Notes: generated from the letters alone by a model not told the origin. 64,000 bases of DNA from Frankiales bacterium (GCA_025965475.1 JAOPWV010000105.1:320-64319), one strand, 5' to 3'; positions 2,931-48,061 are shown, numbered from the stretch's first letter. Program-made: numbers and translations.

Positions 2931-4255
2931 TCCGGGTCGGCAGGATCGGCACCCTGCGGGGGCGCCTCGCCCTGGTGGTGGTCCTCACCACGTCTGCGTG
3001 GGCGGGTCTGCTCACCGTGGGGTTCAACGTCGTCCTGGCCGGCCAGTTGCACAACCAGGCCACCTCCCTGCTGCGGGAGCGCGCCGCGGTGGCCGCGGGA
3101 ACCGTCGAGATCGGACCGGACGGGCAGCTGACCATCCACGACCCGGCCACGGACGAGGCCCTCGACTCCAGCATCTGGATCTACGCGGGCAAGGATGCAG
3201 TCGAACGCCCTCGCGCGGGCCAACAGCTCGACGACGAGGCTGACCGGCTCGCGGACAGCGGGCAACGCTTCGCTCTCATCACGGACCCCGCGCCCACCCG
3301 GCTGTTCGCGCTGCCCATCAAGGTGGGCCACCGCCAGGTGGCGACCGTGGTCTCCGCGGTCTCGTTGGACCCCTACCGGCACGTCCAACGCGTCGCGTTG
3401 CTCGCCAGCCTGGGGCTCGCCGTGCTCCTGCTGGCCGGGGTCTACGGCGCGACCCGCATCCTCGTCGGCCGGGCTCTGGCGCCGATGACGGCGATGAGCC
3501 GGCAGGCCGCCCGGTGGAGCGCGGAGGACGAGACCCAGCGCTTCGGACAAACCCACCGGCCGCGCGAGCTGGCCGCCCTGGCCGGCAACCTGGACGGCCT
3601 GCTCGACCGGCTGGACGCCGTACTCCGGCACGAGCAGCACTTCACCGAGGAGCTGTCGCACGAACTGCGTACGCCCCTGGCGCTCATCACCGCGGAGACC
3701 GACCTGCTGACGGTCCGGCCCCGTACCCCCACGGAGCGGGCCCTCGCGTACGGCCGCATCTCCGACGCCTCGGCCCGCATGAGCCGGATCCTCGAGACGT
3801 TGCTGACCGCCGCGCGCTCCCGCGGACTGCCCTCGACCGGGCGCTGCGAGCTGCGTCCTGTCGCCGAGCTGGCCGCCGCGCGCTGTGCGGCCGGCGACGT
3901 GACGGTGACGGTCGTGGGCCCCCCGGGCCTGGCGGCCGGGGCGGGGGCGGACGTCGTGGAGCGCATCCTCGCGCCGCTGCTGGACAACGCGGTGCGCTAC
4001 GCCACCAGATCGGTCCAGGTCGAGCTGGCCGTCAACCGGGCGCAGGTCGTGCTGCGGGTGACCGACGACGGACCGGGCGTCGAACCCGCAGTCCGGGATG
4101 CGGTCTTCGAACCCGGCCGGCGAGGCAGCGACGACGGGCATCTCGGAGCGGGGCTGGGGCTTGCGCTGGCCCGGCGGCTGGCCCGTGCCGCCGGTGGCGA
4201 CCTCCAGCTGACGTCCGGCGGCGCCTTCGAGATCCGGCTGCCGCGGGTCGCCTAG
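2927..4255 (+). CDS. sensor histidine kinase
   Basis: The ATG at 2927 overlaps the response-regulator stop (ATGA), in the frame of track ORF 2225..4255. There is an N-terminal TM segment, an H-box SHELRTPLALI, and N/G boxes LLDNAVRYA, DDGPGV and GAGLGLALARRL. Confidence 0.9.
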   Translation: MIRVGRIGTLRGRLALVVVLTTSAWAGLLTVGFNVVLAGQLHNQATSLLRERAAVAAGTVEIGPDGQLTIHDPATDEALDSSIWIYAGKDAVERPRAGQQLDDEADRLADSGQRFALITDPAPTRLFALPIKVGHRQVATVVSAVSLDPYRHVQRVALLASLGLAVLLLAGVYGATRILVGRALAPMTAMSRQAARWSAEDETQRFGQTHRPRELAALAGNLDGLLDRLDAVLRHEQHFTEELSHELRTPLALITAETDLLTVRPRTPTERALAYGRISDASARMSRILETLLTAARSRGLPSTGRCELRPVAELAAARCAAGDVTVTVVGPPGLAAGAGADVVERILAPLLDNAVRYATRSVQVELAVNRAQVVLRVTDDGPGVEPAVRDAVFEPGRRGSDDGHLGAGLGLALARRLARAAGGDLQLTSGGAFEIRLPRVA

Positions 4256-4291
4256 GGTCGTCACCGGTCCAGCTCACCGGGAGGGGAACGC

Positions 4292-4990
4292 GTGTCGGTC
4301 AGCATGGCCAGCGGGCGCCGCGTGCTGCTCGTCGAGGACGACAGCAGCATCGGCGCCGGACTCGTGGCCGCCCTGGCCGGCGCGGCCTACGAGGTGCGGT
4401 GGGCGCGTACCGCCCAGGAGGCCAGGGCCCTGCTCGCCGGCCGTGACGCCGACCTCGTCCTGCTCGACCTCGGGCTGCCCGACGGTGACGGCATCGAGCT
4501 GTGCCGCGACCTGCGGGCCACCGACGACCAGGTGGTGGTCGTCGTCGTGACCGCCCGCACGGACGAGGCCGATGCCGTCCTGGCCCTCGACGCCGGGGCC
4601 GACGACTACATCACCAAGCCGTTCCGCGTCGTCGAGCTGCTGGCGCGGGTGCGCGCCCACCTGCGCCGCCGCGACGCGGCCGGCCCCGACGACGTCCGGG
4701 TCGGCCGGCTGCGCCTGGACCGCCGGGGCCGACGGGTCTGGATCGACCAGACCGAGCTCGTCCTGCGGCCCAAGGAGCTCGAGCTGCTCTCGATGCTCGT
4801 GGCCTACGCGGGCACCGCGGTACGCCGCGAGCAGCTCATGGACGAGGTGTGGGACGAGCACTGGCAGGGCTCGACCAAGACCCTCGACGTCCACGTCGCG
4901 AACCTGCGGCGCAAGCTCGCCGACGCCGGCGACCGGTGGGACCGGATCGCGACCCTGCGGGGGTACGGCTACCGCTACGAGGCGGACTGA
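4292..4990 (+). CDS. OmpR-family response regulator
   Basis: Receiver motifs are VLLVEDD, LVLLDLGLPDGDG and ITKPF. The C-terminus has LRPKELELLSML...LRGYGYRY. Confidence 0.9.
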   Translation: MSVSMASGRRVLLVEDDSSIGAGLVAALAGAAYEVRWARTAQEARALLAGRDADLVLLDLGLPDGDGIELCRDLRATDDQVVVVVVTARTDEADAVLALDAGADDYITKPFRVVELLARVRAHLRRRDAAGPDDVRVGRLRLDRRGRRVWIDQTELVLRPKELELLSMLVAYAGTAVRREQLMDEVWDEHWQGSTKTLDVHVANLRRKLADAGDRWDRIATLRGYGYRYEAD

Positions 4991-6303
4991 GCCGGCAGGA
5001 GCAGCGCCAGCCGGGGATGCGGAGCCCGGCGGCGGACGAGCAGGTCCCCGCCGAACCGCTCCGCCAGTTCGGCAGCCAGCCGCAGCCCGACACCCGGAAC
5101 CGCTCCGTCGGCCAGCCCGGGCCCCTCGTCCGCGACCTCGACCACGACCCGCTCACCGAACGGCTCGACGGTCACGGTGACGCGGCCGGCCCCGTGACGC
5201 AGGGCGTTGTCGACCAGCACGTCCAGCGCCTGACGCACCGCGGCGTCCGGTACCCGCACCCGGTCCACCTCGTCGGCCCGCAGGTCGACCGCCCGCCCGC
5301 TCGTCGTACGCCGCCAGCGCTCCACGACCTCGACCGCGACCGCGACCGGGTCGCACGACACGTCCTCGTCCGCGGACCGGACGACCAGCAGGTCGTCGAT
5401 CGTCGTCTCCAGGTGGCGGGCCCGCTCCAGGGCCGCCTCCAGTGCGGCCTTCCCGGACCCGTTGGCGCTCGGCGCCAGCGCCGTCTCGAGTCCGACGAGC
5501 AGACCGGCCAGCGGCGTCCGCAGCTGGTGCGAGGCGTGCCGGGTGAACTCCCGCTCGTGGCGGACCAGGGCGCCCACCTGCCGGGCGGACTGCTGCAGCG
5601 CGGCACCGGCGGCGTCCGCCTCGGCCAGCCCCCAGCTCGGCAGCGCCAGGTCGTACGACCCGGAACCGAGCGACCGGGCGGCGTCGGTCAGTGCCTCGAA
5701 CGGCCGGGAGATCCGGCGGGCCACCCGGCCGGCGACGACGAACACGACGGCCAGCACCAGCAGGGCCAGCCCCAGCAGCGCCGCCCACGCCTCGAGCACG
5801 CGCTCCCGCAGAACGGCCACCGGGATCGCCGCCCGCACCGTGCCGGCGACCGCCACGTCGGAGCGGACCGGCAGCACCACGGTGAGCTGCCCGGCCTCGG
5901 TGCCGTCCCGCTCGCGTCCGTCGGCGGCCTGTCTCGCCAGCGCCGACGTCGCTGGGCCGGTGCCCGCGACCCGGCGCCCGGCGGGGTCGTAGACCGCAAG
6001 GACCGAGGGGGCGGCCAGCCGCGGCAGGGCGATGGCGGCGCCGACCTCGATCGCGTTGTCGGGGACGCCGGCCAACGCCCGCGTCGCGTCGCGCTGCAAC
6101 CGGGTCAGGGCCTCGTCGTCGACGACGCGGTTCACCGCGATGGCGAGGGGGACCGCGAACAGACCGATGGCGCAGGCGGCCAGCAACACGATGGCGTCCC
6201 GTACCCGATTGCGGAGCAGCGGCACCCGCCGACTCTGCCACACCGGCAAGCCCCCGCGACGAGGCAAACGCGGCGTTGGCCGAGGGTCGCCTGGCGCTGA
6301 CAT
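4975..6303 (-). CDS. sensor histidine kinase
   Basis: Track ORF 4975..6447 was trimmed to ATG at 6303 (MSAPGD). It has an H-box SHQLRTPLAGL, LVDNALRHG and DEGPGL. Its 3' end overlaps the convergent response regulator by 16 nt. Confidence 0.85.
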   Translation of the reverse strand: MSAPGDPRPTPRLPRRGGLPVWQSRRVPLLRNRVRDAIVLLAACAIGLFAVPLAIAVNRVVDDEALTRLQRDATRALAGVPDNAIEVGAAIALPRLAAPSVLAVYDPAGRRVAGTGPATSALARQAADGRERDGTEAGQLTVVLPVRSDVAVAGTVRAAIPVAVLRERVLEAWAALLGLALLVLAVVFVVAGRVARRISRPFEALTDAARSLGSGSYDLALPSWGLAEADAAGAALQQSARQVGALVRHEREFTRHASHQLRTPLAGLLVGLETALAPSANGSGKAALEAALERARHLETTIDDLLVVRSADEDVSCDPVAVAVEVVERWRRTTSGRAVDLRADEVDRVRVPDAAVRQALDVLVDNALRHGAGRVTVTVEPFGERVVVEVADEGPGLADGAVPGVGLRLAAELAERFGGDLLVRRRAPHPRLALLLPAQSAS

Positions 6304-6338
6304 TCCGGTTCCTAACGTCGTACTCCCCGACCTCTGGA

Positions 6339-7004
6339 GTGCTCGTGCTGCACCGCACCGCCACCCTCTCCGTCTCCGCCCTGCTCGGCGTGGCCGTGCT
6401 GGCCACCGGTTGCGGTGGCTCCTCTCCGGCCCCCGCGCCGGGCACATCCCCCGCAGCCGGGTCCTCCGCCCCCGCGGCAGCCGCAGGTCCGAGCGCCGGC
6501 AGCGCCGGCACCGAGAAGCCGGTGGCCGTGGAGAGCAACCCGCCGGGGGACATCAGCGACAACATCCAGTACGTCGCCTACACGAACCCGGCCGGGCGGT
6601 ACACGATCAAGCATCCCGAGGGCTGGGTCCAGCAGGAGCAGGGGGCGAGCGCCTCCTTCAACGACAAGCTCAACGGGCTCACCGTCGCGCCGGGCACGGC
6701 CACCACGGTGCCGACGGTGCAGACCGCCACGTCGACGGACGTGCCAGCGCTGCAGCGCAGCCAGCCGGCGTTCCAGCTCGGCGCCGTCTCGGCGGTCACC
6801 GTCCCGGCCGGCAACGGCGTGCGGATCGTGTACCGGCGCAACTCGGCCCCGGACCCGGTCACCGGGCGCAAGTACCGGGACGAGGTGCAGCGCTACGAGC
6901 TGGTCCACAACGGACGCGAGGTGGTCGTGGAGCTGTTCGGGCCCGTCGGGTCGGACAACGTCGACCCGTACCGCATCATGATCCAGAGCCTGCAGATCTC
7001 ATGA
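6339..7004 (+). CDS. secreted lipoprotein of unknown function
   Basis: GTG at 6339 gives VLVLHRTATLSVSALLGVAVLATGCGG, a signal peptide plus lipobox LATGC. A Pro/Ala/Ser linker follows. This is the first gene of the ABC operon. Confidence 0.7.
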   Translation: MLVLHRTATLSVSALLGVAVLATGCGGSSPAPAPGTSPAAGSSAPAAAAGPSAGSAGTEKPVAVESNPPGDISDNIQYVAYTNPAGRYTIKHPEGWVQQEQGASASFNDKLNGLTVAPGTATTVPTVQTATSTDVPALQRSQPAFQLGAVSAVTVPAGNGVRIVYRRNSAPDPVTGRKYRDEVQRYELVHNGREVVVELFGPVGSDNVDPYRIMIQSLQIS

Positions 7005-38401: not shown

Positions 38402-38909
38402 CGATGACCGCGAGCCCGGCGTCGGTGAGCACCCGCTCGTCCTTCTCGGTCCGCAGCAGAGGCTGCGGGCCCCGGTAGAGGGCCGCGAGGCCGGCCGGCG
38501 CGATGCCGAGTTCCCGCGCGGTCTGATGCAGCTCCAGCTTGTGCATACGCCCGCCTGCGGCGGACACCCGCCGCAGCAGGTTCCCGACCTGCGCACCGTC
38601 CGGGCCGGCCGACTCCTGGGGCTCCGCATCGGCGAGCAGCGCGTCGATCTGGCGCTGGAGCCCACGCAGCGCGAACCGAAGCCGGGTCGCCTCGTCGAGC
38701 TCCTGCGGCGCGTCGCCCGCGCCCTGCCAGGTCCGCTTGGGGTGCCGGCGCAGGTACTCCTGCTCCAGCTCCAGCATGCGCTCCGTGTGCCGGGCGTACT
38801 GCTCGGCCGTGCCGTGCAGGAAGACCCAGTTGCGCGTGGCATGCGCGTGCGTCCCCTGCTGCTCCAGCTCCTCGTCCGACAGCTCGCGGGCAGGCCGTCC
38901 CTCGCTCAT
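38397..38909 (-). CDS. hypothetical protein (acidic N-terminus, last gene of box operon)
   Basis: The 170-aa ORF has a start that overlaps the amidohydrolase stop (ATGA). The product begins MSEGRPARELSDEELEQQGTHAHATRNWVFLHGTAEQYARHTERMLELEQEYLRRHP. I cannot assign a function. Confidence 0.6.
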   Translation of the reverse strand: MSEGRPARELSDEELEQQGTHAHATRNWVFLHGTAEQYARHTERMLELEQEYLRRHPKRTWQGAGDAPQELDEATRLRFALRGLQRQIDALLADAEPQESAGPDGAQVGNLLRRVSAAGGRMHKLELHQTARELGIAPAGLAALYRGPQPLLRTEKDERVLTDAGLAVIG

Positions 38910-39778
38910 GGCGTCTCCTCCGCATCACCAAGTCCCGCATACACCCGCCGCGCGTTCTCGCCGAGCACGAGAGGGATGACGTCCTCCGGGATACCGAGCC
39001 CGGCGACCGCCCGGGCGTTGGTGGCGGTGCCCGGCACCCCGGGCCAGTCCGTGGCGAAGATCCACTTGCGGGCGAGCCGGCCCAGGTCGAACCGGGCGTA
39101 GTACTCCGGCAGCCGCTTGGGCGGCAGGCCGGACAGCTCGATCCAGACGTTCGGGTGCGTCAGCGCGAGGAAGGCGGCCGCGTCGTACCACCAGCCCCGG
39201 CCGCCGTGCGCGAGCACGATGGTCAGGTCAGGGAAGTCGCGCAGCACCGTGTCGGCGTGCACCGGGTCGGCAAGGGCGTTGGTCGAGCCGGGGAACGTGC
39301 TGGTCCCGCAGTGCACGACCAGCGGCACCTGCCGTTCGACGAGCACCTCGTACGCCGGGTAGAGCGCGGCGTCGTCGAGCCGGAAACCACCATGAACCGG
39401 GTGCAGCTTGAGCGCGGCACCGCCGAGGTCGAGCTGGCGCCGTACCTCCCGCGCAATCGGGTAGTGCAGGTGCGGGTTGACGTTGGCGACGGGGCGGAAC
39501 AGCACCGGGTCGTGCTCGACGATCGGCAGTAGGTCGTCGAACCGCTGGTAGCCGGTGGCCTTGGGGCTGTACTCGCAGAACAGCAGCGCGACGTCGACAC
39601 CCTCGCGGCGGAACAGCTCCGCCAGCCGGGCCGGCCGCGGGACCCCCTCGGGATCCCAGACGTCCTCGAGGATGCCGGCGGGCCCGAAGTTCTCCGCCCA
39701 GGCGAGCCACGCGGGCGCGAGACTGTCGAGCCGCGGCACGTGGACGTGGGCGTCCACCAGCAGGTGGCCGTCGAGCAC
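38906..39778 (-). CDS. metal-dependent amidohydrolase-fold (TIM-barrel) hydrolase
   Basis: The product has LLVDAHVHVP (an HxH metal motif) and then ...LKLHP...VVHCG...VLAHGG...FATDWP, a pattern typical of the amidohydrolase-2 type family. Confidence 0.8.
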   Translation of the reverse strand: MLDGHLLVDAHVHVPRLDSLAPAWLAWAENFGPAGILEDVWDPEGVPRPARLAELFRREGVDVALLFCEYSPKATGYQRFDDLLPIVEHDPVLFRPVANVNPHLHYPIAREVRRQLDLGGAALKLHPVHGGFRLDDAALYPAYEVLVERQVPLVVHCGTSTFPGSTNALADPVHADTVLRDFPDLTIVLAHGGRGWWYDAAAFLALTHPNVWIELSGLPPKRLPEYYARFDLGRLARKWIFATDWPGVPGTATNARAVAGLGIPEDVIPLVLGENARRVYAGLGDAEETP

Positions 39779-40129: not shown

Positions 40130-41146
40130 TCAGGCGAGAGGGGCGGGGACAGGTGCGGGTGCGGCATCCGTGGAGTGACCCGGGAACAGCTGCGCCTCCG
40201 GGTCGATCTCCACAGCGGCATTGTTCACCGCCGTGGCGACCTCGCCGAACCCGACACTGATCAGGCGCACCTTGCCTGCGTAGTCGGTGATGTCACCGGC
40301 GGCGTAGACCCGCGGCAGGCTGGTGCGCATCCGGCTGTCGACCACCAGGTGCCGGTTGTCGTGCAGCTCCAGGCCCCACTCGCGCATCGGACCGAGATCG
40401 GCGAGGAAGCCCAGGGCCGCGACGAGGCGCTGGCACGGCAGCACCACCGGGCCGTCGAGGTCCTTCGCCGTCACGTGAACGGCGTCAACGCTTCCGGCTC
40501 CCAGGACGGCCGTCACCTCGGCGTCCACGAGGATGCGGGCGCCGGAGGCGCGGACGGCATCGACGGTCGCCGCGTGCGCCCGGAACGCCTTGCGGCGGTG
40601 GACCAGGGTCACCGAGCGCGCGGTCGGCGTGAGCGCCAGCGCCCAGTCGCAGGCGCTGTCGCCACCGCCGACGATGACGACGTCGGTGCCGTCGTAGTCG
40701 GCGAGCCGTGGGACGAAGTACGCCAGGCCCCGGCCGAGGAACTCCTCGCCGGTCGGCAGCGGTCGTGGCTCGAAGGTCCCGATCCCACCGCTGATGACGG
40801 CGGCGCCGCAGGTGATGCGGCTGCCGGCACTCGTCTCGACGACCAGCGGGCCGTCCGGCCGGTGCTCCAGGGACTGCGCCGCCTCCCCGAGCAGGTATGC
40901 CGGGTCGTACCGGGCGGCCTGCTCGACCAGCCCGGCCACGAGGTCCCGGCCGCGGATGCTCGGGAAGCCGGCGACGTCGTAGATCGGCTTCTCCGGGTAC
41001 ATGGCCGTCACCTGGCCACCCACCTCCGGCAGCGAATCCACCAGCGCGGTCCGCAGGCCCCGCACCCCGGCGTAGTAGGCGCCGTACAGGCCGACCGGAC
41101 CGGCGCCCACGATGAGCAGGTCGACGTCGACGTCCTGTGCGGTCAC
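40130..41146 (-). CDS. thioredoxin-reductase-like ferredoxin-NADP(+) reductase
   Basis: Track ORF 40130..41209 was trimmed to GTG at 41146. Motifs are the FAD site LLIVGAGPVGLYGAYYAG, the NADPH site VVIVGGGDSACDWA and C-terminal YAAGDI. There is no CxxC redox pair, so it looks like an FNR rather than a TrxB. Confidence 0.8.
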   Translation of the reverse strand: MTAQDVDVDLLIVGAGPVGLYGAYYAGVRGLRTALVDSLPEVGGQVTAMYPEKPIYDVAGFPSIRGRDLVAGLVEQAARYDPAYLLGEAAQSLEHRPDGPLVVETSAGSRITCGAAVISGGIGTFEPRPLPTGEEFLGRGLAYFVPRLADYDGTDVVIVGGGDSACDWALALTPTARSVTLVHRRKAFRAHAATVDAVRASGARILVDAEVTAVLGAGSVDAVHVTAKDLDGPVVLPCQRLVAALGFLADLGPMREWGLELHDNRHLVVDSRMRTSLPRVYAAGDITDYAGKVRLISVGFGEVATAVNNAAVEIDPEAQLFPGHSTDAAPAPVPAPLA

Positions 41147-41150
41147 CGCG

Positions 41151-42857
41151 TCACACCCGCGCGGTGTCGAACGACGCCCGCGTGCCGCTGCCGAACCGGC
41201 GCAGCGCACCGTCGGGTCCGGAGGCGTTGGGCCGCAGGAAGATCCAGTTCTGCCAGGCGGTGAGGCGTCCGAAGATCTTGGTCTCGACGGTCTCCGGGCC
41301 GACGAACCGGTGGTTGGCCTCCAGGCCGGTCAGCGCGTCCGGGGAGAGCGAGGCACGCTCCTCGAGCGCGATCCGCAGCTCGTCCTCCCAGTCCAGGTCG
41401 TCGGGCGCGACGGTGACCAGGCCCAGGTCCATCGCCGCCGCGGCGTCCAGCGGCTCACCGGCGGACGCGGCCGCCGCCGCGAGATCGTCGTCGTGCCCGT
41501 AGAAGCGGGACTCCAGCCGGCTCAGGCCGTTGCCCATCGGGTAGCGGCCCAGGTTGGCGGGTCCGACCGTCAGGGCCGCCGGCCCGTCGGCCGCGTCGAT
41601 GCCCGGGATCGGGTCCTCGGGGATGCCGTCGAGCATGTACTGGCGGTCGCAGGCGAGCGCGAGCTCGAGCAGCGTCCCCGCGAAGCAGCTGCCCGGCTCG
41701 ATCACGGCGATCAGGCTCCGGCTCGTCACGTCGAGCCGCTTGAACGTCCGCTTGAGGAAGTGGGTGACCTCGTTGACGAACCAGTCGCCGGCCAGTTCGT
41801 CGAGCTGTGCGTCGTACGCCAGCAGACGCCGCGCGTCGCCCCGGGTCCTGATGACCCAGGTGCCGAGCTGCAGCTCGTTCGTGCGCAGATGCAGGATCAG
41901 CTCGTCGAGCTCCCTGGCCAGCGCCATCGGGTAGTAGTCGACGCCCTCGTCCAGGACGCCCGCCGCGTCGGCGGGCGGATCCTGGTCCGGTCCCGTGACG
42001 AGAAGGTCCACCCGCCGCGCGGCACGGTCCAGCCGTGCCTCGACGTGCCGGTAGGTGATCCGGTCGTCGGTCTCCTCGCGCTGCAGCGGGCTGAGGGTGA
42101 CCCCGCGGCCGCCCTCACGGGTCGAGTGGGCTGCCGCCTCCTCGGCCCGGGTGCGCACGGCCTCCGCGAACTGCCCGCGCGGGACGCTCTCGTCGACCAG
42201 GCCCCAGTCGACCGCCGTCCGCCCGCGGGCGCCTTCGGTCTTCGTCGCGAACACGTCGGCCCGGTCCTTGCGGACGTGCCGCTTGTCGACCACGCGCGTC
42301 AGGCCGCCCGTGCCGGGCAGTACGCCGAGCAGCGGCACCTCGGGCAGCGACACCGCCGACGAGCCGTCGTCCACGAGGACGATGTGCTCGCAGGCCAGCG
42401 CGAGCTCGTACCCGCCGCCGGCCGCGGTGCCGTTGAGCGCCGCGATGTAGGTCTGGCCGGAGACCGCGCTCGCGTCCTCGATGCCGTTGCGGGTCTCGTT
42501 GGTGAACTTGCAGAAGTTCACCTTCCAGGCATGCGAGGACTGCGCGAGCATCCGGATGTTCGCCCCGGCACAGAACATCCGGTCCATCCCGCCGGTCACG
42601 ACGACCGCACCGACCTCCGGATGCTCGAAGCGCAGCCGCTGCACCGCGTCGTACAGCTCGATGTCCACGCCGAGGTCGTAGCTGTTCATCTTCAGGTCGT
42701 AGCCCGGCACGAGCCCGCCGTGCTCGTCCACCGTGAGCGTCAGCGTCGCGACACCGCCCTCCGTCTCCAGCGTCCAGTGCCGGTAGCGGTCCGGAGCGGT
42801 TGCGAAGACCACCCGCGCGGGAGTCGCCGTGCCGGGTCCGCTCTCGAGCAACGTCAT
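41151..42857 (-). CDS. boxC: 2,3-epoxybenzoyl-CoA dihydrolase BoxC (crotonase superfamily)
   Basis: The roughly 568-aa product is a double crotonase-like protein (FCAGANI, AALNGTAAGGGYELALACE). It lies next to a benzoate-CoA ligase and near boxB. I prefer ATG at 42857 because GGAG lies 6 nt upstream. ATG at 42863 is an alternative. Confidence 0.8.
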   Translation of the reverse strand: MTLLESGPGTATPARVVFATAPDRYRHWTLETEGGVATLTLTVDEHGGLVPGYDLKMNSYDLGVDIELYDAVQRLRFEHPEVGAVVVTGGMDRMFCAGANIRMLAQSSHAWKVNFCKFTNETRNGIEDASAVSGQTYIAALNGTAAGGGYELALACEHIVLVDDGSSAVSLPEVPLLGVLPGTGGLTRVVDKRHVRKDRADVFATKTEGARGRTAVDWGLVDESVPRGQFAEAVRTRAEEAAAHSTREGGRGVTLSPLQREETDDRITYRHVEARLDRAARRVDLLVTGPDQDPPADAAGVLDEGVDYYPMALARELDELILHLRTNELQLGTWVIRTRGDARRLLAYDAQLDELAGDWFVNEVTHFLKRTFKRLDVTSRSLIAVIEPGSCFAGTLLELALACDRQYMLDGIPEDPIPGIDAADGPAALTVGPANLGRYPMGNGLSRLESRFYGHDDDLAAAAASAGEPLDAAAAMDLGLVTVAPDDLDWEDELRIALEERASLSPDALTGLEANHRFVGPETVETKIFGRLTAWQNWIFLRPNASGPDGALRRFGSGTRASFDTARV

Positions 42858-42893
42858 GTGCATCTCCGTCCGCCGAGGGTCGGTCGCCTCTCC

Positions 42894-42942
42894 AAACACA
42901 CTACGGGTTCGTGCATCTGCGTCAATGCTGTGTAGCAGGTTT
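42894..42942. promoter_or_regulatory. box operator-like element, site 1: AACACACTAC-N27-GTAGCAGGTTT
   Basis: CTAC lies at 42901..42904 and GTAG at 42932..42935, exactly 27 nt apart. The flanks are identical to site 2 (10 nt plus 11 nt). It sits between the bcl stop and the boxC start. Confidence 0.5.
42898..42925 (-). promoter_or_regulatory. candidate boxC promoter TTGACG-N16-TAGTGT (minus strand)
   Basis: The minus strand reads TTGACG (42925..42920), a 16-nt spacer, then TAGTGT (42903..42898). The bcl stop codon TGA is embedded in the -35 hexamer. The promoter lies inside operator site 1. Confidence 0.45.
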
Positions 42943-44505
42943 CTGGACGAGCCGGTCGGCCACCGCGTCCCGCAGCCGGAACCGCTGGATCTTGCCGGTG
43001 GCCGTCTTCGGCAGCTCGTCGAGGACCACCACGGCCCGCGGCCGCTTGAACGCGGCCAGACCCTCGCGGCACCAGGCCACCAGCTCGTCGGCGTCCACCG
43101 TCCGGCCGGCGGCCGGCACCACGCAGGCGACCGGCTTCACCAGCCCATCGCCGTCCGGGGCACCCACGACGGCCACCTCGGCGACCGACGGGTGCTGCAG
43201 CAGCCGCTCCTCCACCTCGGCCGGGGACACCCAGATGCCGCCGGCCTTGAGCAGGTCGTTGGACCGGCCCATGCACGTGTAGTACCCGTCGACGGACCGG
43301 GTGTAGGTGTCGCCGGTGCACAGCCACTCCCCCTGGAAAACGGCGCGTGAGGCGTCCGTGCGGCACCAGTACCCGGAGGCGATCGAGGCACCGCGCACGA
43401 ACAAGCCGCCGGGCTCCCCGTCGGGCACCCGCGCACCGGTCTCGTCGCGCAGCTCGATGTCGTACCCGTGCACCGGCGTCCCCGACGTGCCGGGACGCAC
43501 GGCTCCTGCGGTGTTGGACAGGAAGATGTGCAGCGCCTCGGTGGACCCGATGCCGTCGAGGATGTCGACCCCGAACCGGCTGGTGAACCGGTGGTACAGC
43601 GTCGGTGGCAGGGCCTCGCCGGCCGAGGCGCAGAGCCGGACGCTGGAGAAGGTGTCCGCGGGCAGGTCCGAAGCGAGCAGCGCGGCGAAGAAGCTCGGGC
43701 TGCCGAAGAACAGCGTCGGCGCATCGGCCGCCATCCGCTCTCGGACCACCTCCGGGGACGGCCGCCGCGGCTCGAGGACCGTCGTCGCACCGACGGAGAG
43801 GGGGAACAGCGCGGAGTTTCCGAGGCCGTAGGCGAAGAACAGCTTCGCGACGGAGAAGCAGACGTCCTCGGGGCCGATGCGCAACACGTCACGGCCGTAC
43901 GTCTCGCAGACGGCCCGCAGGTTCTCGTGCCGATGCATCGCCGCCTTCGGCATCCCCGTGGTCCCCGACGTGTACAGCCAGAGCGCCGGCGTGTCCGCGG
44001 TCGTCCTGCCGGGCGGTCCGGGCGGCGTGCCGGCACCCGCGGCGAGCACGTCGTCCCACGCGTGCACGGCCACCCCGGGCGGGGTCCGCACCTCCGCGCC
44101 ATCCACGGTGATCACGTGCGCGAGGTCGGGCGCGGCCGCCATCGCCGTGGAGGCGGCGTCGGCGAACTCGGGCGTCACCACGAGGACGCGGGCGCCGGAG
44201 TCCGCGACCACCTTGGTCAGCTCGGGTCCGGTCAGCATGGTGGAGACGGGCACCGCGACGGCGCCGCTGCGGAAGGCCCCCAGGACGCCGGCCAGCAGCT
44301 CCGGCCGGTCGGAGGCCACGAACATCACCCGCTCGCCCGCTCGGACGTCGAGCGCGCGCAGACCCGCCGCCACCCGGCAGGACGCATCCTGCAGCTGCCC
44401 ATAGGTCTGCGTCCGGCCGGCACTGCGCACCGCCACCCGCTCGCCGAGGCCGGCATCGACCTGACGGTCGACGAGGTACTGCGCGGCATTGAACGCTTCG
44501 CTCAT
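42922..44505 (-). CDS. benzoate-CoA ligase family (adenylate-forming enzyme)
   Basis: Track ORF 42922..44568 was trimmed to ATG at 44505 (MSEAFNAAQYLVD). The AMP-binding motifs are LYTSGTTGMPKA, GDTY and GKIQRF. Overall it resembles benzoate/4-hydroxybenzoate-CoA ligases. It is the first gene of the box operon. Confidence 0.85.
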   Translation of the reverse strand: MSEAFNAAQYLVDRQVDAGLGERVAVRSAGRTQTYGQLQDASCRVAAGLRALDVRAGERVMFVASDRPELLAGVLGAFRSGAVAVPVSTMLTGPELTKVVADSGARVLVVTPEFADAASTAMAAAPDLAHVITVDGAEVRTPPGVAVHAWDDVLAAGAGTPPGPPGRTTADTPALWLYTSGTTGMPKAAMHRHENLRAVCETYGRDVLRIGPEDVCFSVAKLFFAYGLGNSALFPLSVGATTVLEPRRPSPEVVRERMAADAPTLFFGSPSFFAALLASDLPADTFSSVRLCASAGEALPPTLYHRFTSRFGVDILDGIGSTEALHIFLSNTAGAVRPGTSGTPVHGYDIELRDETGARVPDGEPGGLFVRGASIASGYWCRTDASRAVFQGEWLCTGDTYTRSVDGYYTCMGRSNDLLKAGGIWVSPAEVEERLLQHPSVAEVAVVGAPDGDGLVKPVACVVPAAGRTVDADELVAWCREGLAAFKRPRAVVVLDELPKTATGKIQRFRLRDAVADRLVQKPATQH

Positions 44506-44561
44506 GGCTCTGCACTCCAGCAGTCGCGGTCCGTCAGGAGTCTGCCTCTCCTGTGACCCGG

Positions 44562-44609
44562 AACACACTACAGATCATCGGGCCGGCATCATCGACATGT
44601 AGCAGGTTT
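44562..44609. promoter_or_regulatory. box operator-like element, site 2: AACACACTAC-N27-GTAGCAGGTTT
   Basis: CTAC lies at 44568..44571 and GTAG at 44599..44602, 27 nt apart. It sits in the 152-bp divergent region between bcl (start 44505) and the PaaX-type regulator (start 44658). Confidence 0.5.
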
Positions 44610-44657
44610 GACCGGGACCTGCATGTCCGCGGTGGCGGCGCGTGGTGCAATTCGGGG

Positions 44658-45500
44658 GTGGATGACAGACCCCGCTCGCGCCGGCGCGAGACCGGCGCGG
44701 CCAGCGCGCGCTCGCTGCTGCTGACCGTCCTCGGGGAGTTCGTGCTGCCCCGGCACGCCGCCGCCTGGACCGCCGCGCTCGTGACCGCGTTGGCCGAGCT
44801 CGGCGTCGAGGAGAAGGCGGCCCGGCAGGCGCTGTCCCGCACGGCCGCCGAGGGCCTGCTCACGTCCGAGCGCGAGGGACGCCGGGTGCGCTGGCACCTG
44901 ACACCCGCCGGCACCCGGCTGCTCGAGGAGGGCACCGAGCGCATCTACGGATTCGGCCGGCGCGTCGAGGAATGGGACGGACGCTGGCTCATCCTCACGG
45001 TCAGCGTGCCGGAGACGCAGCGCCAGCTCCGCCACCGGCTGCGGACCCGGTTGACCTGGGCCGGCCTCGGGTCGCCCCTGCCCGGCCTGTGGGTGTCGCC
45101 GTACGCCGACAAGGAGAAGGAGGTCGCCGTCGTCATCGAGGAGCTCGGCGTCGAGTCGTTCTCCTTCACCGGGCCGTTCGGGATCGTCGGGGACCAGCAG
45201 AAGGTGGTGGCGGACGCCTGGGCGCTGGATGCCGTGGAGGAGCGGTACGCCGCGTTCCTGCGGGCGTTCCGCAGCGAGAAGGCCGCCACGACCACCGCTG
45301 CCTTCCGGGACCAGGTCCGGCTCGTACAGGAGTGGCGGCGCTTCCCGTTCCTCGACCCCGCACTCCCGGCGCCGCTGCTGCCCGCGACGTGGCCCGGACC
45401 GGCGGCCGCAGCGCTGTTCCACGCACGGCACGACCACTGGCACGCCGCCGCGCAGGAGCACTGGGACGAGCTGGCCGGGAACGCCGAGCTGCGCAGCTGA
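44658..45500 (+). CDS. PaaX-family transcriptional regulator
   Basis: Track ORF 44553..45500 was trimmed to GTG at 44658. It has a winged-helix N-terminus (SARSLLLTVLGEFVLP...ELGVEEKAARQALSR) and a PaaX-type C-terminal domain (WDGRWLILTVSVPE...RLRTRLTWAGLG...LWVSP). Confidence 0.85.
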   Translation: MDDRPRSRRRETGAASARSLLLTVLGEFVLPRHAAAWTAALVTALAELGVEEKAARQALSRTAAEGLLTSEREGRRVRWHLTPAGTRLLEEGTERIYGFGRRVEEWDGRWLILTVSVPETQRQLRHRLRTRLTWAGLGSPLPGLWVSPYADKEKEVAVVIEELGVESFSFTGPFGIVGDQQKVVADAWALDAVEERYAAFLRAFRSEKAATTTAAFRDQVRLVQEWRRFPFLDPALPAPLLPATWPGPAAAALFHARHDHWHAAAQEHWDELAGNAELRS

Positions 45501-45544
45501 GGCCCGCGCGCGGCGGCCGCGCCGGGCACCTGCAGAATCGGAGG

Positions 45545-45979
45545 GTGCCGACCCCTGACGCTGACCAGACCATCCTCCCGCCGCAGATGCTCGAAGGCTT
45601 CGACACCCTGCTCGGCCTGACCCTCACCCATGCCGACGCCGACACGGTCGTCGGACGGCTCGAGATCAAGCCCGAGCTGCACCAGCCGTTCGGCATCGTG
45701 CACGGCGGCGTCTACTGCTCGGTCGTCGAGACGGTGGCCAGCGTCGGGGCGTCGCTGTGGTTCGGCGATCGCGGCAACGTCGTCGGCGTCGCCAACCACA
45801 CCAACTTCCTGCGCGCGGTACGGCAGGGCACCCTCGACGTCAGGGCCACCCCGGTGCACCGCGGGCGCACCCAGCAGCTGTGGACCGTGACCGTCACAGA
45901 CGAGAGCGACCGGCTCATCGCCCAGGGCGAGGTGCGGCTCGCGAACGTGGCGAGCGCGGGGGCCCTCGCCCGGTCCTGA
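45545..45979 (+). CDS. PaaI-type hotdog-fold thioesterase
   Basis: It lies in the frame of track ORF 44972..45979, starting at GTG 45545 (alternative ATG about 45587). The product contains LGLTLTHADADTVVGRLEIKPELHQPFGIVHGGVYCSVVETVAS...HRGRTQQLW. Confidence 0.8.
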   Translation: MPTPDADQTILPPQMLEGFDTLLGLTLTHADADTVVGRLEIKPELHQPFGIVHGGVYCSVVETVASVGASLWFGDRGNVVGVANHTNFLRAVRQGTLDVRATPVHRGRTQQLWTVTVTDESDRLIAQGEVRLANVASAGALARS

Positions 45980-45994
45980 CCGTCCTGACTGCGC

Positions 45995-47458
45995 CTAGAA
46001 GCGCACGTAGTCGAACTCCACGGACATCTCGTTGATGCCCTGCGGCGGCGGCGTCAGCCAGGACGCGAAGCTCCCCGGCTCGTGATGCGGGACCATCAAC
46101 GCGCCGACCCGGCTGCGGTCGTCCGGGGTGGGCAGCCACTCGTCCGTCCGGGCCTGCCAGGCCGCCTCGTCGACGACCTCCCCGGCCGGGGTGACGTGGT
46201 GTCCGGCGTACGCCCCGACCTGGCGGTAGAAGCCCTCGTGCGGCAGAGCCAGCCGCTCGTCGAGGCCGGCCTCCTCCAGGGCCTGGTTCCAGCGGCGGAC
46301 ACCGTTCTCGCAGTCGGCGACGTACTCGTCGCGCAGGTCGAGGTTCAAGGCGCCGAGCAGCGGCACGGTCTTCTGGACGATGCGGCCGTCCTCGACGACG
46401 TTCATCTCGCGGGTCTGGTCGAGAAGGACGTGGTCGTCCTTGCGCCGGGTCTCGCCCCAGCGGCCCTTGAGCCCGGAGGTGAAGTAGTTCCCGGCGTTCG
46501 TCGACTGCTCCGACCCGAACAGGTCCATGGACACGGCGAATTGGAAGTTCAGGTACTTCTGGATGACGGCGAGCGGGATCGCGCCGTGGTCCCAGAGGTC
46601 GTCGCCGGGGTGGTCGCGCATGATCTGCGCGGTGCGCTCCACGATGCGCTGCACGCCGGTCGTGCCGACGAACATGTGGTGCGCCTCCTCCTTGAGCATG
46701 AACTCGCAGGTGCGCGCCAGCGGGTCGAAGCCGGACTCCTTGAGGGTGCCGAGCTGGTACTTGCCGTCCCGGTCCGTGAAGTACGTGAACATGAAGAACG
46801 TCAGCCAGTCGGGCGTGTCCTCGTTGAACGCCCCGAGGATGCGCGGGCTGTCGGGGTCGCCGGAGTGCCGCTTGAGCAGTTGCTCGGCCTCCTCACGGCC
46901 CTCCCGGCCGAAGTAGGCGTGCAGCAGGTAGACCATCGCCCACAGGTGACGCCCCTCCTCGACGTTCACCTGGAACAGGTTGCGCATGTCGTACAGGCTC
47001 GGTGCGGTCGAGCCGAGGTGGCGCTGCTGCTCGACGGACGCGGGCTCGGTGTCCCCCTGCACGACGATCAGCCGCAGCAACTCGGCGCGGTACTCCCCCG
47101 GCACCGTCTGCCAGGCCGATTCCCCCGCATGCTGCCCGAAGGCGATGCGCCGGTCCGGCTCGGGCTCGGCGAGGAAGATCCCCCAGCGGTACTCCTCCAT
47201 CGGCACCCGGTCGAAATGCGCCCAGCCGTCCCGCCCGACGGCCGTCGCGGTGCGCAGGTACACGTCCTGCGTCGGGATCGCGGGACCGAGTTCCTTCCAC
47301 CAGTCCATGAACTTGGGCTGCCAGCCCTCGAGCGCGCGCTGCAGGCGGCGGTCGGTGTTCAGGCCCACGTTGTTCGGGATCCGCTGTGAGTAGTCAACCG
47401 GGTTGAGTGGCCCGTCGGGATCGGGCGCCGAGCCCGTGTGCGTGGTGGGTGCCGTCAT
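45995..47458 (-). CDS. boxB: benzoyl-CoA 2,3-epoxidase oxygenase component BoxB (diiron)
   Basis: Track ORF 45995..48112 was trimmed to ATG at 47458, with GGAGG 6 nt upstream. The product contains YSQRIPNNVGLN...LEGWQPKFMDWW and the diiron ExxH pairs VEEGRHLW and KEEAHHMF. Confidence 0.9.
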   Translation of the reverse strand: MTAPTTHTGSAPDPDGPLNPVDYSQRIPNNVGLNTDRRLQRALEGWQPKFMDWWKELGPAIPTQDVYLRTATAVGRDGWAHFDRVPMEEYRWGIFLAEPEPDRRIAFGQHAGESAWQTVPGEYRAELLRLIVVQGDTEPASVEQQRHLGSTAPSLYDMRNLFQVNVEEGRHLWAMVYLLHAYFGREGREEAEQLLKRHSGDPDSPRILGAFNEDTPDWLTFFMFTYFTDRDGKYQLGTLKESGFDPLARTCEFMLKEEAHHMFVGTTGVQRIVERTAQIMRDHPGDDLWDHGAIPLAVIQKYLNFQFAVSMDLFGSEQSTNAGNYFTSGLKGRWGETRRKDDHVLLDQTREMNVVEDGRIVQKTVPLLGALNLDLRDEYVADCENGVRRWNQALEEAGLDERLALPHEGFYRQVGAYAGHHVTPAGEVVDEAAWQARTDEWLPTPDDRSRVGALMVPHHEPGSFASWLTPPPQGINEMSVEFDYVRF

Positions 47459-47471
47459 GGGACGCCTCCGG

Positions 47472-47516
47472 TTGTCTACGACTAGGTGGCGATACGTCAT
47501 CAGTCTGTAGCATGTC
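47472..47516. promoter_or_regulatory. box operator-like element, site 3: TTGTCTAC-N27-GTAGCATGT
   Basis: CTAC lies at 47476..47479 and GTAG at 47507..47510, again exactly 27 nt apart. It lies 14-58 nt upstream of the boxB start, in the boxB/CBS divergent region. Confidence 0.45.
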
Positions 47517-47632
47517 CGCCGGATGCACAACCCGGGAGGACCGTTGAGTTCTCCGCCCCGGCGCGTACTGTCAGCCACGAGATCGGGCAACCGTCTGTTC
47601 GCGTGCGTGTGTACGGATGGAGGTGCGGTGCG

Positions 47633-48061
47633 ATGAAGATCGCCGAGGTGCTCCGGCTCAAGGGTTCTGCCGTCGTCACGATCACCCCGGAGACCCCGGT
47701 CTCCGGGCTCGTGGACCAACTGGCCCAGCACGGCGTGGGCGCCCTCGTGGTCTCGGCGGACGGGCAGTCCCTCGACGGCATCGTCAGCGAGCGGGACGTC
47801 GTACGGCGGCTGGCCGCCCACGGCGCCGGGCTGCTCGACCACACGGTCGCGGACATCATGACCAGGTCGGTCCGCACCTGCGGCCTGAAGGACACCGTCG
47901 ACGAGCTCATGGCGCTGATGACCGAGCAGCGGGTCCGGCACGTGCCGGTCCTCGAGGACGGCAAGCTCGTCGGCCTCGTGAGCATCGGCGACGTCGTGAA
48001 GCAGCAGATCGACGTCCTCAAGACCGAGCGCGACCAGCTCGAGGCCTACATCACGACCTGA
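47633..48061 (+). CDS. CBS-domain pair protein
   Basis: ATG at 47633 lies in the frame of track ORF 47486..48061. There are two CBS motifs (GVGALVVSADGQSLDGIVSERDV and VRHVPVLEDGKLVGLVSIGDV). Confidence 0.85.
   Translation: MKIAEVLRLKGSAVVTITPETPVSGLVDQLAQHGVGALVVSADGQSLDGIVSERDVVRRLAAHGAGLLDHTVADIMTRSVRTCGLKDTVDELMALMTEQRVRHVPVLEDGKLVGLVSIGDVVKQQIDVLKTERDQLEAYITT

Follow-up and report, generated by a model that had tools for sequence, protein, structure and literature searches.

Which protein governs the aerobic degradation of benzoyl-coenzyme A (benzoyl-CoA) when the only regulator gene lying among the pathway genes encodes a member of the PaaX family? The question is raised by a 64,000-nucleotide (nt) stretch of the genome of a Frankiales bacterium (GCA_025965475.1, JAOPWV010000105.1:320-64319), referred to here as the window, in which a high-GC, actinobacterial locus carries the box genes boxB and boxC, a benzoate-CoA ligase gene and a paaX-type gene at 44658-45500. 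A preliminary description of the window, made from the sequence alone, had pointed to three copies of a long-spaced inverted repeat, CTAC-N27-GTAGCA (N27 standing for any 27 nt), and had proposed them as a candidate operator of the PaaX-type regulator. The pattern is real and specific, and it is not the product of chance. Read from sequence, the three sites very probably serve as operators for the PaaX-family product of the gene at 44658-45500. We also regard as probable the whole of the best explanation, in which these PaaX operators would define a box regulon of three transcription units, with repression by promoter blocking and release by benzoyl-CoA.

Sequence and specificity of the three sites

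A pattern scan of the window returned exact matches to CTAC-N27-GTAGCA at 42901-42937, 44568-44604 and 47476-47512, all on the plus strand. The three copies and their exact 27-nt spacing are thereby borne out, and the outer coordinates first assigned to them hold to within 1 nt. In dinucleotide-preserving shuffles (n=100), the mean number of matches per window was 0.01, and three or more were reached in 0 of 100. Sites 1 and 2 have their flanks in common, AACACACTAC on the left (42895-42904 and 44562-44571) and GTAGCAGGTTT on the right (42932-42942 and 44599-44609), around spacers that measure exactly 27 nt each and are unrelated to one another, whereas site 3 reads TTGTCTAC (47472-47479)-N27-GTAGCATGT (47507-47515). 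The orientation of all three relative to the downstream gene, which in each case lies on the minus strand, is identical; read on that strand, site 1 becomes TGCTAC-N27-GTAGTGTGTT.

The gene coordinates confirm the placement originally given: upstream of boxC, in the divergent gap between the ligase and regulator genes, and upstream of boxB. Relative to the boxC ATG (42857), site 1 is placed 38-85 nt upstream, where it also overlaps the stop codon of the ligase gene (42922-42924). Site 2 falls between the ligase ATG (44505) and the paaX GTG (44658), and the boxB ATG (47458) is preceded by site 3 at a distance of 14-58 nt.

The genome searched comprises 3.89 Mb in 215 contigs, the window corresponding to positions 320-64319 of contig C178. 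CTAC-N27-GTAGCA has only three matches in this whole genome, all of them in the window, and is thus unique to the box cluster rather than spread through the chromosome, as it might have been; a control pattern written backwards has none. A weight matrix built from the half-sites and scanned over the genome recovered the same three sites together with one weaker candidate on another contig, C195, which carries one mismatch and scores 24.9, the next best score in the genome being 14.6. The shorter core CTAC-N27-GTAG yields 12-23 chance matches per genome in genomes of 6-10 Mb, below the number obtained with the backwards control pattern, so the bare eight-base core is not diagnostic outside a promoter context.

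The PaaX-family protein and the sites in related genomes

The predicted product of 44658-45500 matches PF07848 (61.4 bits), PF20803 (70.4 bits) and PF08223 (72.8 bits), in every case above the cut-off, and over residues 15-253 it matches the structure of Escherichia coli PaaX (PDB 8A39, E 1.7e-22). It was therefore rightly called a PaaX-type regulator. Against TIGR02277, the equivalog model of the phenylacetate PaaX, it reaches 167.8 bits, below the cut-off of 264.55, and it is 28-37% identical to canonical PaaX proteins. A quick maximum-likelihood tree unites the box-linked PaaX proteins in one clade of 88 sequences (Shimodaira-Hasegawa-like approximate likelihood-ratio test, SH-aLRT, 97), with a long branch between it and the paralogs. 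The homologs found in 61 sampled relatives fall into two classes, one 51-78% identical and located beside box genes, the other ~31-42% identical; the second PaaX paralog of this genome (C71:2406-3182, 37% identity) belongs to the latter. Among the same 61 relatives, boxB is present in 12 and a box-type PaaX in 12, with both in 11, and the two exceptions are contigs broken off inside the cluster.

At least 434 relatives of the regulator were found across Actinomycetota, spanning metagenome-assembled genomes of Frankiales and Mycobacteriales as well as Nocardioidaceae, Kribbella, Mycobacterium, Streptomyces and Amycolatopsis, and 80 loci around orthologs (1.416 Mb) were analysed. Strict CTAC-N27-GTAG occurs 43 times in these loci, compared with 1-7 times for each other spacing between N20 and N35, and every one of the 43 stands beside box genes. 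The exact N27 motif is thus conserved at the box promoters of relatives, where the strict sites occupy the gaps upstream of boxC, between the ligase gene or boxC and paaX, and upstream of boxB. The orthologous site upstream of boxC is strict in 28 of 43 relatives and has N26 or one mismatch in seven more. A betaproteobacterial (Mycetohabitans) boxCBA cluster with a BoxR-type regulator served as a negative control, and no CTAC-N27-GTAG was found in its control regions.

The number of sites equals the number of transcription units despite shuffled gene order: three in genomes G017 and G013, two in G029 and G051, and one where boxC-boxB, or boxC and the ligase gene, make a single operon. Where boxB lies on a separate contig (G018, G031 and G022), a strict site is found 18-125 nt upstream of it in each. 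In Streptomyces, the site is upstream of boxC, and paaX is located at the other end of the boxC-boxB-ligase operon, in convergent orientation; the motif is therefore tied to the box promoter and is more than just a control region of paaX itself. The core initially put forward holds in part. CTAC and GTAG are widely conserved, together with an A/T that stands symmetrically, five bases outward of each half, and nothing further, whereas the trailing CA is specific to the lineage of the source genome, as are the long AACACA/GGTTT flanks.

Departures from the strict form occur in several lineages. Upstream of boxB in Nocardioidaceae and Kribbella (loci L058, L063, L064, L065, L068 and L077), the spacer is 28 nt long and one half is CGAC (CGAC-N28-GTAG), within the longer pattern agtCGACaa..c.TTGGCAag.tcgca....gaagtGTAGaac; the spacing is therefore not absolutely fixed in the family. 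Nonomuraea has N27 sites with one mismatch.

Amycolatopsis bears on the first of the other explanations, namely that the sites are real operators bound by a different transcription factor encoded elsewhere, PaaX regulating something else or nothing there. In Amycolatopsis sp. GA6-003 (L079, L134), the box-type PaaX ortholog lies 5.7 Mb from the boxC-boxB-ligase operon, beside a gene for an ABC-F-type ATPase, and the operon still has CTAC-N26-GTAG, with TTGACG, just before boxC. In the Amycolatopsis-dominated subclade, no box genes lie within 10 kb of the ortholog (37 of 37 sampled members). Such a separation is what a factor other than PaaX would allow for, but the Amycolatopsis proteins fall inside the box-type clade, PaaX is the sole regulator gene in the cluster of the window, 11 of 12 genomes combine the PaaX clade with boxB, and the unusual N27 is the published PaaX geometry (PMC9493321). 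Against this evidence we consider a different factor improbable.

The operator of the second paralog was also sought. A search for 5-mer inverted repeats at N23-31 over 19 paralog loci gave GC-rich noise only, and one for GATWC-N26-28-GWATC and AT-richer inverted repeats near paaA/paaC genes gave nothing convincing, GATWC-N26-GWATC having two matches in the whole genome. The paaA/paaC-like genes of this genome form two sets on other contigs (C137:4737-6636 and C135:6841-8533).

Promoter overlap and a proposed mode of repression

A consensus was derived from 53 unique strict sites, each oriented towards its box gene: A.gT.CTACA.ac.cTTGACG-(N15)-cGTAGa.t.Tt. Since the sites were selected for CTAC and GTAG, these do not vary in the set. 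Beyond them, an A stands at -5 in 47 of 53 left halves and in 44 of 53 right halves, and the operator has the symmetry A-N4-CTAC ... GTAG-N4-T; a symmetric A at -5 is the pattern expected from a dimeric protein on a palindrome. TTGACG, by comparison, is one-directional, as expected from a promoter. In 37 of 53 sites it follows the upstream CTAC by exactly 6 nt, and the other sites have near variants of it. At the same offset in the paaX direction, a -35 is not conserved (mean 2.3 of 6 matches), and on this ground a second promoter within the operator, reading divergently into paaX, was rejected. Sixteen nt after the -35 comes a TAGNNT hexamer, which the downstream half-site overlaps. Actinobacterial -10 elements obey a TANNNT rule that is looser than the E. 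coli type, and the promoters listed in Table 1 were assigned on the conserved TTGACG, the conserved register and this rule.

Building on these elements, we infer the following course of events. The protein would control a small regulon of three transcription units, namely boxC with the reductase gene, the benzoate-CoA ligase gene, and boxB. Before each, the operator A-N4-CTAC-N27-GTAG-N4-T would bracket a housekeeping-type promoter pointing at the box gene, its upstream half ending 6 nt before a TTGACG-like -35 and its downstream half overlapping the -10 (TAGNNT). Were both halves bound, the -35 flank and the -10 would be covered, which points to repression by promoter block: a bound PaaX dimer would keep RNA polymerase off the promoter. 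In the presence of benzoate, the product of the ligase, benzoyl-CoA, would then release the repressor. Benzoyl-CoA, proposed by analogy with the pairs PaaX/phenylacetyl-CoA and BoxR/benzoyl-CoA, is in our estimation a moderately likely effector.

Several observations weigh against this picture. On the side of the promoters, the -10 of site 3 is only 14 nt before the boxB ATG and would leave a very short leader, the 16-nt distance between -35 and -10 is rather short, and the -10 fits the looser actinobacterial TANNNT rule only; an E. coli-type promoter scan of 42700-47700 calls no promoter. On the side of the operator, some lineages have N28 or degenerate halves such as CGAC or GTGG. Linkage does not always support the pairing of PaaX with the site, since the Amycolatopsis regulator is 5.7 Mb away and its site is N26. 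Lastly, our searches for an operator of the genome's second PaaX paralog, meant as a comparison, were without success.

PaaX may also bind these sites in another capacity, as an activator or dual regulator, or its ligand may not be benzoyl-CoA but, for example, benzoate, 2,3-epoxybenzoyl-CoA or a different aryl-CoA. Effector and direction of regulation rest on analogy, the identity of 28-37% to canonical PaaX is accompanied by a score under the equivalog cut-off, and the thioesterase gene beside paaX suggests that CoA-ester levels matter. An operator that covers the -35 flank and the -10 is nonetheless typical of repression, and those PaaX proteins that have been characterised repress until they are released by the CoA thioester which the first pathway enzyme makes (PMC9493321; PMC4424350). 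We give these variants a small chance, and repression by PaaX with release by benzoyl-CoA is retained.

That CTAC and GTAG are mere promoter elements (an extended -10 and an upstream element) read by RNA polymerase or a sigma factor, with no repressor at all, is highly improbable: GTAG does overlap the TAGNNT -10 and TTGACG does stand at a fixed offset, so that part of the conservation could be promoter-driven, but the conserved positions have two-fold symmetry (A at -5, T at +5; CTAC, GTAG) where the -35 is one-way, the motif is confined to box promoters (three sites in 3.89 Mb), and we know of no promoter element that would account for CTAC 6 nt upstream of a -35. A repeat element, either a repetitive extragenic palindrome (REP) or a miniature inverted-repeat transposable element (MITE), was ruled out by the unrelated spacers, the presence of only three copies in this genome and a position conserved across families.

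With PaaX as the preferred regulator, a broader reading can be formulated, towards which we lean only slightly. The box-type PaaX clade may be an Actinomycetota-wide benzoyl-CoA sensor that keeps the 27-bp reach and reads A-N4-CTAC; the scaffold would have been retargeted to a new pathway, giving the first PaaX-family benzoyl-CoA regulator, and the operon next to the C195 candidate would possibly be included in its regulon.

Gene neighbourhood and known aryl-CoA regulators

Table 1. Putative operators, assigned promoters and genes of the box cluster, in window coordinates.
Feature	Position	Strand	Description
Putative operator 1	42895-42942; core CTAC 42901-42904, GTAG 42932-42935	-	boxC promoter
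Putative operator 2	44562-44609; core 44568-44604	-	152-nt intergenic region; ligase and paaX genes divergent
Putative operator 3	47472-47516; core 47476-47512	-	boxB promoter
boxC promoter	-35, 42925-42920; -10, 42903-42898	-	TTGACG, 16-nt spacer, TAGTGT; -35 contains the ligase stop TGA (42924-42922)
Ligase promoter	-35-like, 44592-44587; -10, 44570-44565	-	ATGATG, N16, TAGTGT
boxB promoter	-35-like, 47500-47495; -10-like, 47478-47473	-	ATGACG, N16, TAGACA
Thioredoxin reductase (TrxR)-like FAD reductase	40130-41209	-	After boxC; adjoins boxC in relatives
boxC (2,3-epoxybenzoyl-CoA dihydrolase)	41151-42857	-	TIGR03222, 862.8 bits (cut-off 712); predicted target of operator 1
Benzoate-CoA ligase family	42922-44505	-	TIGR02262, 539.5 bits (cut-off 375); predicted target of operator 2
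paaX, box-type	44658-45500	+	280 amino acids; winged-helix N domain, Cas2-like middle domain, C-terminal domain
Hotdog-fold (4HBT) thioesterase	45545-45979	+	PF03061; NCBIfam hotdog thioesterase, weak PaaI match
boxB (benzoyl-CoA 2,3-epoxidase subunit B)	45995-47458	-	TIGR03225, 741 bits (cut-off 499); predicted target of operator 3

The genes around the sites make up an aerobic benzoyl-CoA (box) cluster, in which BoxB, BoxC and the benzoate-CoA ligase all score above their NCBIfam cut-offs (Table 1); the BoxA model found no match among the cluster genes, no whole-genome search for BoxA having been made. Almost every related locus with a boxC gene has the TrxR-like FAD/NAD(P) reductase gene after it, and the reductase is a candidate for the role of electron donor to BoxB. 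Another gene that stays with the box cluster is of the Amidohydro_2 type (window 38906-39778). The thioesterase gene starts 44 nt downstream of paaX and is probably co-transcribed with it. In E. coli, PaaY, the partner of PaaX in the paaXY pair, is thought to adjust the levels of the aryl-CoA inducer, and by analogy the thioesterase of the window may play this role. The cluster of genome G018 has a PaaY-like hexapeptide-repeat gene (L036 6433-6960) instead of the hotdog thioesterase. At locus L041 (G013:C5), in-frame TGA stops or split matches affect boxB, paaX and the ligase gene, and the three operators are intact; the gene breaks could reflect sequencing error in this 5-contig, 70%-complete assembly or early gene decay.

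Two further loci carry near matches to the operator. On C195 (L046), CTAC-N27-GAAG at 6391-6425 lies upstream of a minus-strand amidase gene (4731-6341), in an operon with genes for the beta (3977-4660) and alpha (3294-3980) subunits of nitrile hydratase, and a TetR gene adjoins. No such site was found upstream of the amidase orthologs in the four relatives checked, and the operon is a weak candidate only for a fourth member of the regulon. If the site is real, the breakdown of nitriles and amides such as benzonitrile and benzamide could be tied to the box regulon. In G018 (L036), CTAC-N27-GGAG (6368-6402, one mismatch) is located upstream of genes for an ATP-binding cassette (ABC)-type substrate-binding protein and a permease, downstream of the ligase cluster; this ABC system may serve benzoate uptake within the same regulon.

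Should benzoyl-CoA control by PaaX be borne out, the pathway would have a second, independently recruited regulator family, an instance of convergent regulation. The 27-bp spacing would be a fixed property of PaaX and the half-site a changeable one, a view qualified by the N28 variants of Nocardioidaceae and Kribbella. The operator consensus and the defined regulon are directly testable in culturable strains of Streptomyces, Kribbella, Amycolatopsis and Mycobacterium. They could also improve the annotation of several hundred genes labelled just 'PaaX family regulator' and offer a candidate benzoyl-CoA biosensor for high-GC hosts. Our literature search found no paper linking a PaaX-type protein to box genes or dealing with box regulation in Actinobacteria, although most subscription journals were not covered and the result is not proof of novelty.

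Among regulators that respond to aryl-CoA thioesters, those described for benzoyl-CoA are BzdR and BoxR, of the XRE family, and GenR, of the MarR family, PaaX and PaaR being described for phenylacetyl-CoA only (PMC4424350). BoxR and its paralog BzdR, of the proteobacterium Azoarcus sp. CIB, repress box genes until the first CoA intermediate relieves them (PMC4424350), which is also the behaviour predicted here. They are built differently, with an XRE-type helix-turn-helix (HTH) fused to a shikimate-kinase-like domain, and are unrelated to PaaX. This HTH and shikimate-kinase-like architecture is present in the Mycetohabitans box cluster. In the genome studied here, a search with a BoxR-type query found no HTH_3+SKI fusion, in the box cluster or elsewhere, and gave separate partial matches only (residues 116-275 on C38, residues 18-86 on C128), in agreement with the early suggestion of a regulatory solution distinct from BoxR.

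PaaR of Corynebacterium glutamicum, Thermus thermophilus and Burkholderia cenocepacia resembles the proposed system as an aryl-CoA-responsive repressor of a CoA-dependent epoxidase pathway (PMC9493321). It differs in belonging to the TetR family, in its compact palindromic operators and in serving the paa pathway. PaaR is the only aryl-CoA-responsive repressor of this kind that we found described in an actinobacterium (PMC9493321).

The closest counterpart is PaaX itself. E. coli PaaX, whose inducer is phenylacetyl-CoA, binds TGATTC(N27)GAATCA, and Pseudomonas sp. Y2 has a similar site (PMC9493321); the operator geometry named in the preliminary description is thus the published one. The protein of the window shares with these regulators its family, the three-domain architecture and homology to 8A39. 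As in E. coli, the putative operators consist of short inverted repeats with a 27-bp inner spacing and overlap catabolic promoters (Pa, Pz, Px and pac in E. coli). A thioesterase gene comes after that of the regulator, as it does in paaXY, although the partner here has a hotdog fold and not the hexapeptide-repeat fold of PaaY. The expected inducer would again be the aryl-CoA that the pathway's first enzyme produces. The differences lie in specificity. The half-site is A-N4-CTAC, not TGATTC, and in place of TGATTC-type half-sites at paa promoters we found CTAC/GTAG halves at box promoters. The predicted regulon is box, the benzoyl-CoA epoxidase pathway, not paa, with benzoyl-CoA as the presumed effector, and the protein falls under the TIGR02277 cut-off, in a clade apart from the genome's other paralog. 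The PaaX family and its 27-bp geometry were known before; what this locus would add is the half-site, the box regulon and, probably, benzoyl-CoA as the effector.

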